Assembly: GCF_003334385.1 (NCBI RefSeq)
Contig: NZ_QOWN01000018.1
Origin: Escherichia coli
GTDB lineage: Bacteria > Pseudomonadota > Gammaproteobacteria > Enterobacterales > Enterobacteriaceae
Strand: one strand, 5' to 3'
Length of the DNA stretch: 64,000 nt
Shown here: positions 23,763 through 23,960 of the stretch, one piece after another
Position numbering within the stretch: the stretch's first letter is position 1
How the letters are laid out: the number at the start of each line of letters is the position of its first letter
Translations under genes and position numbers: made by a program
The notes under the pieces: model-generated
Told to the model about the DNA's origin: nothing
Seen by the model: the letters and a program-made list of their open reading frames with translations, nothing else
Database searches by the model: none

Positions 23763-23769
23763 ATTTTTT

Positions 23770-23930
23770 TCCATCAGATATAGCGTATTGATGATAGCCA
23801 TTTTAAACTATGCGCTTCGTTTTGCAGGTTGATGTTTGTTATCAGCACTGAACGAAAATAAAGCAGTAACCCGCAATGTGTGCGAATTATTGGCAAAAGG
23901 CAACCACAGGCTGCCTTTTTCTTTGACTCT
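23770..23930 (+). ncRNA. sraB: probable SraB small RNA (yceF-yceD intergenic), approximate bounds
   Basis: Established knowledge places SraB in the yceF/yceD intergenic region in K-12; here a 7-bp stem (aaaggca...tgccttt, ~23897-23919) followed by tttttcttt provides a plus-strand intrinsic terminator; 5' end not determinable from sequence. Confidence 0.35.
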
Positions 23931-23960
23931 ATGACGTTACAAAGTTAATATGCGCGCCCT

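Follow-up and report, generated by a model that had tools for sequence, protein, structure and literature searches.

The short interval between the genes yceF and yceD of Escherichia coli raises the question of how a ribosomal-protein operon, yceD-rpmF, is expressed if a small RNA (sRNA) terminates almost directly in front of its first start codon. The interval was studied in a stretch of 64,000 nucleotides (nt) of E. coli DNA (NCBI RefSeq assembly GCF_003334385.1, contig NZ_QOWN01000018.1). This whole stretch is referred to as the window, and positions are those of the window. A preliminary description made from the sequence alone had reported a 198-nt gap between the two genes, the sRNA SraB ending with a plus-strand hairpin and U-run about 35 nt before yceD, and a TTGACT-N17-TAATAT arrangement just before the yceD ATG, and had proposed a yceD-rpmF transcript that is near-leaderless or dependent on read-through. 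The gap itself (23763-23960) agreed with the list of open reading frames (ORFs) and with the annotation of strain K-12: the start codon of yceF, on the minus strand, ends at 23762, and the ATG of yceD, on the plus strand, is at 23961. The whole interval is very probably best explained as a compact control region, in which two promoters, a terminator and a start codon are packed into the gap (Table 1). The two plus-strand starts (23816 and 23959), the terminator between them with an RNA 3' end at 23924, read-through, binding of SraB to ProQ and higher read counts in ppGpp0 (ppGpp, guanosine tetraphosphate) are established by the published data cited below.

Table 1. Features of the yceF-yceD interval and of yceD (positions in the window; TSS, transcription start site)
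Feature	Position	Strand	Evidence
sraB as annotated (169-nt long form)	23756-23924	+	RF00077; K-12 b4418, 1146589-1146757
Divergent yceF promoter, -10 TAAAAT (23805 to 23800), TSS 23792	23792-23805	-	TSS tables
-10 TAAACT of yceDp1, the SraB short-form promoter	23804-23809	+	454 TSS table; conservation
SraB short form (~109 nt), yceDp1 to terminator	23816-23924	+	E. coli and Salmonella TSS at -145; Term-seq 3' end
5'-terminal stem-loop of the short form, lineage-specific insertion	23816-23856	+	Predicted fold; genus comparison
Second stem-loop, inner stem CGCA/UGCG, loop AUGUG	23866-23890	+	Rfam consensus structure
Intrinsic terminator of SraB, stem 23895-23919, U-rich run 23916-23924	23895-23924	+	Fold; conservation; Term-seq
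Proximal yceD promoter, -35 TTGACT (23923-28), 17-nt spacer, -10 TAATAT (23946-51)	23923-23951	+	Consensus scan; conservation; TSS tables
GC-rich discriminator GCGCGCC	23952-23958	+	Salmonella TSS table; invariant in alignment
Start of (near-)leaderless yceD-rpmF mRNA, 5'-CUAUG	23959	+	454; SMRT-Cappable-seq; Salmonella dRNA-seq (differential RNA sequencing)
yceD coding sequence (173 amino acids, DUF177/YceD)	23961-24482	+	ORF list; sequence

Two starts on the yceD strand recur in published maps of transcript ends. The 454 table of Mendoza-Vargas et al. (2009; PMC2760140) lists a yceD TSS at -145 (= 23816), with the -10 element TTTAAACT, as 'Known, yceDp1', and another at -2 (= 23959), with the -10 element GTTAATAT and 8 reads, as 'New'. 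The latter label ruled out that the -2 start is yceDp2. The -145 start was also obtained by Kim et al. (2012; PMC3415461) with 491 reads and assigned to yceD with a 145-nt 5' untranslated region (UTR). In Salmonella SL1344 (Ramachandran et al., 2014; PMC3963941) the primary TSS of yceD leaves a 5' UTR of 2 nt in early and late stationary phase and heads an operon of six locus tags, SL1344_1127-1132, starting with yceD; the equivalent of the -145 start is listed twice, as the TSS of SraB and as a secondary TSS of yceD. A re-analysis (2021; PMC7967276) found that SraB starts 60 bp downstream of the annotated position (1146589) in all RNA-seq datasets. Since the 454, Kim et al., Salmonella and re-analysis data place both at -145, the reproducible start of SraB and yceDp1 are one and the same start.

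Use of the two starts can be judged from SMRT-Cappable-seq (Yan et al., 2018; PMC6131387, Supplementary Data 1). Transcripts running from 1146792 (= 23959) to a transcription termination site at 1147708 span yceD-rpmF and were represented by 681 reads in M9 and 595 in rich medium; those running from 1146648 (= 23815) to the same site had 429 and 320 reads, respectively. Of the long capped yceD-rpmF reads of both starts, 35-39% thus begin at 23815/16, a share that refers to size-selected transcripts, from whose counts the SraB-terminated fraction of yceDp1 transcripts is unreadable. The counts therefore prove that the proximal promoter fires and that more long yceD-rpmF transcripts come from it than from the upstream start, and they also demonstrate read-through. 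Both possibilities offered in the preliminary description occur side by side, a near-leaderless transcript from 23959 and one from 23815 which passes the SraB terminator.

The proximal promoter matches the consensus in 9 of 12 hexamer positions and ends 9 nt before the ATG. Its spacer falls within the 16-18 nt of sigma-70 promoters, and the primary 5' end is the eighth nt after the -10 hexamer, where 6-9 nt are expected. The first two T residues of TTGACT are the last two U residues of SraB. The hexamers pointed out earlier belong to a real promoter, as was confirmed by their conservation together with the published transcript ends.

For comparison, the yceD locus was taken from 80 Enterobacteriaceae species and from Erwinia, Pectobacterium, Dickeya, Ewingella and Rahnella. 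Of 5426 complete E. coli genomes, 5425 contain a match to the 301 nt of 23700-24000, with at least 99% identity in 5281. SraB lies between yceF and yceD on the yceD strand, and the synteny was the same in all 80 related loci (80/80). An exact look-up of E. coli L32, the product of rpmF, returned, as judged from gene order alone, only loci with an E. coli- or Salmonella-type layout. The segments CTTTGACT and GTTAATATGCGCGCCCTATG were identical in 80/80 Enterobacteriaceae species with no indel between them, and spacer positions alone varied. The -35 hexamer, and the block extending from the -10 hexamer through the discriminator and the ATG to codon 8, were essentially invariant in the 80 species and in the five other Enterobacterales genera, all of which also possess CATTTTAAACTG upstream. 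At the synonymous sites of yceD codons 2-8 the major-codon fraction was 0.96 (0.83 elsewhere), and a single codon was used at 56% of the positions (17% elsewhere). This pattern points to a constraint at the nucleotide level on the first ~25 nt of the yceD mRNA.

The geometry of the promoter was also found in five more distant relatives. In Salinivibrio kushneri (Vibrionales; YceD 53% identical) the arrangement is TTGACT-17-TAATAT-TCGCGCCCT-ATG, in Dongshaea marina (41%) it is TTGACT-17-TATCAT-GCGCGCCCT-ATG, and in an AT-rich metagenomic relative (37%) TTGACA-17-TAAAAT-GTGTATCT-ATG. Ca. Malihini olakiniferum (61%) and an Enterobacteriaceae metagenome-assembled genome (58%) have the TTGACT-17-TAATAT geometry with the discriminators TCCAGCCCT and GCGCGCCCT, respectively. 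The distance from the -10 hexamer to the ATG was 8-9 nt in every lineage examined, and the sequence upstream was unrelated in the distant ones. Salinivibrio, Dongshaea, Malihini and the metagenome-assembled genome have also kept a T-rich run immediately before the -35 hexamer, which the AT-rich relative has not. Inspection by eye, on unfolded sequences, revealed no clear terminator hairpin upstream in these five relatives and, in Salinivibrio and Dongshaea, no SraB-like sequence there either. Because they keep the promoter geometry without a clear terminator hairpin upstream, the promoter abutting the start codon looks older than SraB on this comparison of sequences.

The sRNA itself had been correctly recognized. 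An Rfam scan of the whole window gave a full-length match to SraB (RF00077; b4418, also pke2 or psrA3) on the plus strand (210.6 bits, E = 4.6e-44, model positions 1-169 of 169; the curated gathering score is 130 bits), and sequence, position, strand and terminator are identical to those of the K-12 gene. The first 7 nt of sraB overlap the start codon of yceF on the other strand. Term-seq (Adams et al., 2021; PMC7815308, supplement) gives a 'primary' sraB 3' end at 1146757 (= 23924) in two conditions, so that the RNA ends 36 nt before yceD in K-12, close to the earlier estimate. A Northern blot of SraB is attributed to Argaman (2001) in a quotation in PMC7967276. The data depart from the annotation in that the reproducible 5' end lies 60 nt downstream, the promoter is common with yceD and the 5' hairpin is confined to the Escherichia-Salmonella-Citrobacter group. 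This stem-loop was found in Escherichia, Salmonella, one Citrobacter and Intestinirhabdus, with stem sequences that differ, and was absent from most other genera. The second stem-loop and the linker UUGGC that follows it (to 23894) are the most sequence-conserved part of the RNA; among 56 distinct sequences 94.6% of the alignment cells in this stem-loop were paired, and there was little covariation, the sequence being almost constant.

SraB as modelled by Rfam has a narrow distribution. In the relatives, scores exceeded the gathering score only in Salmonella and Citrobacter; Intestinirhabdus reached 105 bits, eight other genera 34-76 bits, and 5 of the 16 loci scanned gave no match to RF00077. 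For the long form, the -10 hexamer (TAAAAT, 23745-50) falls on wobble positions of yceF and is not conserved outside Escherichia and Pseudocitrobacter; for this reason the 169-nt form was not adopted as the ancestral transcript. Binding of SraB to ProQ has been published as strong co-immunoprecipitation enrichment and by hydrogen-deuterium exchange, small-angle X-ray scattering and gel shifts with the 169-nt RNA. The only SraB phenotype that we found cited, sensitivity to egg albumen in Salmonella Enteritidis, is known from its citation in PMC7967276.

The plus-strand hairpin with its U-run was likewise found where it had been described, inside the gap. Its interrupted stem of ten pairs is formed by 23895-23902 with 23912-23919 and by 23904-05 with 23909-10, with the loop ACA, followed by UCUUU; the U-rich run is UUUUUCUUU. 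A G+C hairpin followed by a U-run that contains the RNA 3' end is what defines an intrinsic terminator. The free energy was -11.2 kcal/mol, compared with -4.3 +/- 2.2 in 1000 shuffled sequences, of which 8 were as stable, and the pair probabilities were 0.73-1.0 in the contexts of the short, the long and the read-through RNA. When orthologues were folded species by species, the hairpin was kept in 44 of 45 distinct sequences (mean -11.7 kcal/mol), its apical sequence and length differing between genera; the lower stem and the U-run were invariant in the 80 Enterobacteriaceae species. In a fixed alignment 94% of the cells were paired, compared with 34-55% when the partners were slid. Covariation in the fixed alignment was modest: 4 pairs changed on both sides, and 74 of 500 shuffles attained as many. 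An invariant lower stem and an apex of variable length account for this; folding per species is the more informative test for this element. A consensus terminator scan missed the SraB terminator because of its internal A/C mismatch. The same scan flagged a minus-strand terminator, the reverse complement of the second SraB hairpin, which was treated as an artefact of the simple rule.

These elements can be combined into the following scheme. Transcription starts at yceDp1, back to back with the yceF promoter, and some of the transcripts stop at 23924 to give the ProQ-binding SraB, the annotated 169-nt form arising from an additional, poorly conserved start at 23756. Other yceDp1 transcripts pass the terminator and become a yceD-rpmF(-plsX-fab) mRNA with a 145-nt leader. 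The second sigma-70 promoter, which begins inside the U-run of the terminator, initiates at 23959 and produces a yceD-rpmF mRNA without leader or Shine-Dalgarno (SD) sequence. If yceD is translated in leaderless fashion with low output and rpmF from GAGGAG, one transcript would yield little YceD and much L32. A GC-rich discriminator like that of rrnB P1 would, in addition, subject the operon to negative control by ppGpp. The terminator may insulate the proximal promoter from upstream transcription, and the shared T-run may act both as the tail of the terminator and as A/T-rich (UP-like) DNA upstream of the -35 hexamer.

A more far-reaching view of the origin of this arrangement can be put forward tentatively, as a possibility that we take seriously without favouring it. 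The yceD start behind a 2-nt leader would be an anciently selected device and not a chance outcome of genome compaction, which fixes a low ratio of YceD to L32 and may couple a factor for 23S-rRNA accumulation to leaderless-competent ribosomes and to ppGpp. It would agree with the near-complete fixation of the stretch from the -10 hexamer to codon 8 in the 85 Enterobacterales genomes sampled and with the 8-9 nt before the ATG in Salinivibrio and Dongshaea. SraB, the terminated leader of the older yceDp1 transcript, would then be a later addition in the Enterobacterales, for which the T-run was co-opted as a U-tail.

The translational part of the scheme concerns the first codons of yceD. The 20 nt preceding the yceD ATG contain no SD-like tetramer, and rpmF has its own SD sequence GAGGAG. 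An in-frame TAA (23946-48) blocks any upstream start of yceD, the N-terminus of YceD is conserved down to homologues of 37% identity, and the 5' end of the mRNA is predicted to be unstructured. By ribosome profiling, yceD was found to be translated less efficiently than rpmF, which was attributed to yceD having no 5' leader (Nakahigashi et al., 2014; PMC4378010). A strictly leaderless mRNA has a 5'-terminal AUG; here the 5' end was a C at -2 in three datasets, which agrees with the looser definition of a 5' UTR of 0-5 nt. Because two extra nt precede the AUG, the yceD-rpmF mRNA is near-leaderless. This -2 mRNA is probably translated in the leaderless (70S-type) mode, with little output of YceD.

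The stringently controlled promoter rrnB P1 has the sequence TATAAT-GCGCCACC and a 16-nt spacer. The TAATAT-GCGCGCC of the proximal yceD promoter resembles it, both discriminators being GC-rich. Higher counts in ppGpp0 and a T-rich tract upstream of the -35 hexamer are further points of resemblance to promoters of this type; unlike rrnB P1, the yceD promoter has a near-consensus -35 hexamer and a 17-nt spacer. The discriminator of the primary yceD TSS of Salmonella, GCGCGCC, is 100% GC, and in the read counts of this study (PMC3963941), which come from late stationary phase, this TSS had 5 reads in the wild type and 57 in ppGpp0, and the SraB TSS 22 and 209. The literature searched contained no in vitro assay of the proximal promoter with ppGpp/DksA. 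By analogy with rrnB P1, the GC-rich discriminator may put the operon under stringent control.

Several points weigh against the scheme. The dataset of Kim et al. (2012; PMC3415461), with its 491 reads at -145, contains no -2 start. Size selection limits what the SMRT-Cappable-seq counts say about termination, as stated above, and the ppGpp comparison consists of read counts from one Salmonella study in one growth phase, not of a direct promoter assay. The fold of SraB as a whole was of no unusual stability relative to shuffled sequences (z = -1.37), and no trans target of SraB was found in the literature searched; SraB may nevertheless act in trans. The transcript starts with a C 2 nt before the AUG, not with an A, and extra 5' nucleotides reportedly lower the expression of leaderless messages. 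Finally, the literature searched held no experiment showing which mRNA isoform supplies YceD.

The last points bear on an alternative in which the -2 transcript is real but is not the template for YceD. YceD would be made mainly from the read-through mRNA with its 145-nt leader, by SD-independent initiation at an A/U-rich, unstructured site, and the proximal promoter would serve mainly rpmF and the downstream genes. This would accommodate the weakening of leaderless initiation that is expected from a 2-nt 5' extension (Krishnan, 2010, as cited by others) and the low ribosome density on yceD (PMC4378010); the read-through isoform is substantial, and the strong SD sequence GAGGAG of rpmF would make the -2 mRNA useful even with a silent yceD. 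However, the read-through isoform is also without an SD sequence and offers no obviously better initiation site. Moreover, everything from the -10 hexamer through codon 8 is frozen across orders, with a spacing of 8-9 nt, whereas drift of the spacing would be expected if the 5' end were unimportant for yceD. We consider this alternative unlikely, and prefer the compact control region in which the -2 mRNA is itself translated into YceD.

Another alternative, somewhat less likely still, starts from the terminator. The short form of SraB could arise mainly as a side product of regulated attenuation and have no function in trans. The module of hairpin, linker and terminator would then be a cis-acting leader, with a termination efficiency that L32, YceD, ProQ, NusA or ppGpp, for example, adjusts to control how much yceD-rpmF is expressed from yceDp1. 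The identity of its TSS with yceDp1, the abundant read-through seen in 35-39% of the long capped yceD-rpmF reads and the lack of a trans target in the literature searched would fit such a mechanism, as would a terminator that is modest in strength (-11.2 kcal/mol, with a mismatch inside the stem and a U-run that is interrupted). In addition, the sequence GCGAAUWWUUGG in the hairpin-linker region is almost invariant across Enterobacterales, beyond what a terminator needs. Against this, no antiterminator pairing was predicted: no structure was found to compete with the terminator, in the nascent RNA the 5' half of the terminator stem takes no part in the fold, and the pair probabilities of the stem are high (0.73-1.0) in all contexts. 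Because no antiterminator structure was found, an attenuator of the riboswitch type, with mutually exclusive terminator and antiterminator, is not supported by the folding models, which leave room for protein-modulated termination. An attenuator would also govern a minority isoform only, most long yceD-rpmF transcripts coming from the downstream promoter, and SraB accumulates and is strongly enriched with ProQ, like trans-acting or stable sRNAs. The compact control region is preferred.

The view that the hexamers are a chance match, that yceD-rpmF depends wholly on read-through and that the 23959 end is a processing product is effectively refuted: the promoter scan alone finds no more sites than chance would give (1 in 1.3 kb, where 1.3 were expected from shuffled sequence) and one TSS dataset is without the -2 start, but the 23959 end was recovered by triphosphate-specific methods (Cappable-seq, and dRNA-seq, in which it was classed as primary), and the hexamers, 17 nt apart, show no change in more than 85 species and are found again in other orders.

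The compact control region shares features with several known systems. Leaderless mRNAs, which account for about 0.4% of E. coli TSSs by Cappable-seq, include those of lambda cI, transcribed from PRM, and of Tn1721 tetR; as in yceD, the promoter directly adjoins the start codon, an SD sequence is lacking, the 5' end is unstructured and the yield is low compared with an SD-led neighbour. Unlike these, the yceD mRNA starts with a C (5'-CUAUG) and has a second isoform with a leader, and yceD-rpmF is a chromosomal housekeeping operon, coding for a ribosome-assembly factor and L32, in which this arrangement is conserved across orders of Gammaproteobacteria. SraB can be compared with ChiZ and IspZ, sRNAs derived from 5' UTRs by premature termination (Adams et al., 2021; PMC7815308), in that sRNA and mRNA are transcribed from the same promoter, the outcome depending on a terminator in the leader. 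It differs from them in being annotated as an independent intergenic sRNA, in associating with ProQ and not chiefly with Hfq, and in having no demonstrated sponge or base-pairing target; moreover, yceD has a promoter of its own after the SraB terminator.

SraB, its terminator and both promoters are in public tables, and the missing leader of yceD has been in print since 2014; the finding is thus already known. What is added here are two increments to known biology, the explicit statement that the short form of SraB and yceDp1 have the same start, and the conservation of the promoter-to-ATG arrangement as far as Salinivibrio and Dongshaea. Neither the shared start nor this depth of conservation was found in the literature searched. 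Since its reproducible start is yceDp1, SraB is also the terminated leader of a ribosomal-protein operon, and the database picture of a free-standing 169-nt intergenic sRNA is misleading. This matters for work on deletions or targets: when sraB is deleted, yceDp1, the yceF promoters or the -35 hexamer of the main promoter of yceD-rpmF can be lost with it. The yceD-rpmF operon represents a rare, deeply conserved, natural near-leaderless housekeeping mRNA, and could be used as a chromosomal model for the setting of protein ratios within an operon by leaderless translation.

On the minus strand, the yceF TSS has a 30-nt UTR and 48 reads in the data of Kim et al. (2012; PMC3415461), and SMRT-Cappable-seq lists a reverse-strand TSS at 1146625 (PMC6131387). 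The TSSs of yceF (23792) and of yceDp1/SraB (23816) lie back to back, 24 bp apart, and their -10 hexamers overlap by two bases; the segment CATTTTAAACT shared by the two is conserved across Enterobacterales. A second reverse-strand start of yceF at 1146700 (= 23867) appears in the same SMRT-Cappable-seq data (PMC6131387). The 5' UTR from this start would run antisense over its whole length to SraB 23816-23867 and also to the yceDp1 promoter. Upstream of the start on the minus strand, within the DNA of the terminator and the second hairpin, there is a weak TTGCCT-17-CACATT arrangement, and this may contribute to the strong conservation of that stretch.

Three ORFs of the gap, MTLQS* (23931), MRALCKR* (23950) and a 32-amino-acid ORF starting with TTG (23836-23934), were set aside as they have no SD sequence, their coding conservation being unchecked. 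The ORF beginning with the ATG at 23931 is in frame with yceD and is closed by the TAA at 23946, and that beginning at 23950 starts inside the -10 hexamer and ends at 23973; both tiny ORFs are readable on the read-through isoform only.

Within yceD, codons 138, 140-145 and 147 (within 24372-24401) are each represented by a single codon in 80/80 species. This block adjoins the hairpin GTGTCCGAAGCGGACAT (24390-24406) and an internal 3' end found by Term-seq at 1147206 (= 24373; PMC7815308), and 24372-24406 might function for rpmF as an RNA element or as an internal promoter. In the spacer between yceD and rpmF, a CCCCG...CGGGG hairpin (24483-24533) is present in E. coli and Salmonella and looks like a lineage-specific insertion, similar in this respect to the 5' hairpin of SraB; in Enterobacter, Raoultella, Cedecea and Winslowiella the yceD stop codon stands almost directly before the rpmF SD sequence. 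A Term-seq 3' end at 1147348 (= 24515) is reported just past the spacer hairpin (PMC7815308).

One YceD cluster representative (P0123, from locus L100, Logan SRR27475802_79640) was discarded as a distant homologue, as it is E. coli DNA in which every G is read as A. The 1085-nt public contig is the sraB-yceD region of E. coli with a bisulfite-type G-to-A conversion, and its translation has become a spurious representative of '49% identity'. The Rfam scan also gave a match to naRNA4/CssrE (RF02564, derived from repetitive extragenic palindromic sequence; 60.8 bits) in a Citrobacter locus (positions 618-700, minus strand), about 800 nt upstream of yceD, that was absent from the other loci scanned. 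In the window, the autoregulatory element of the RNase E 5' UTR (rne5, RF00040) was matched over its full length with 260.1 bits at 21559-21895 on the minus strand, as expected upstream of rne.

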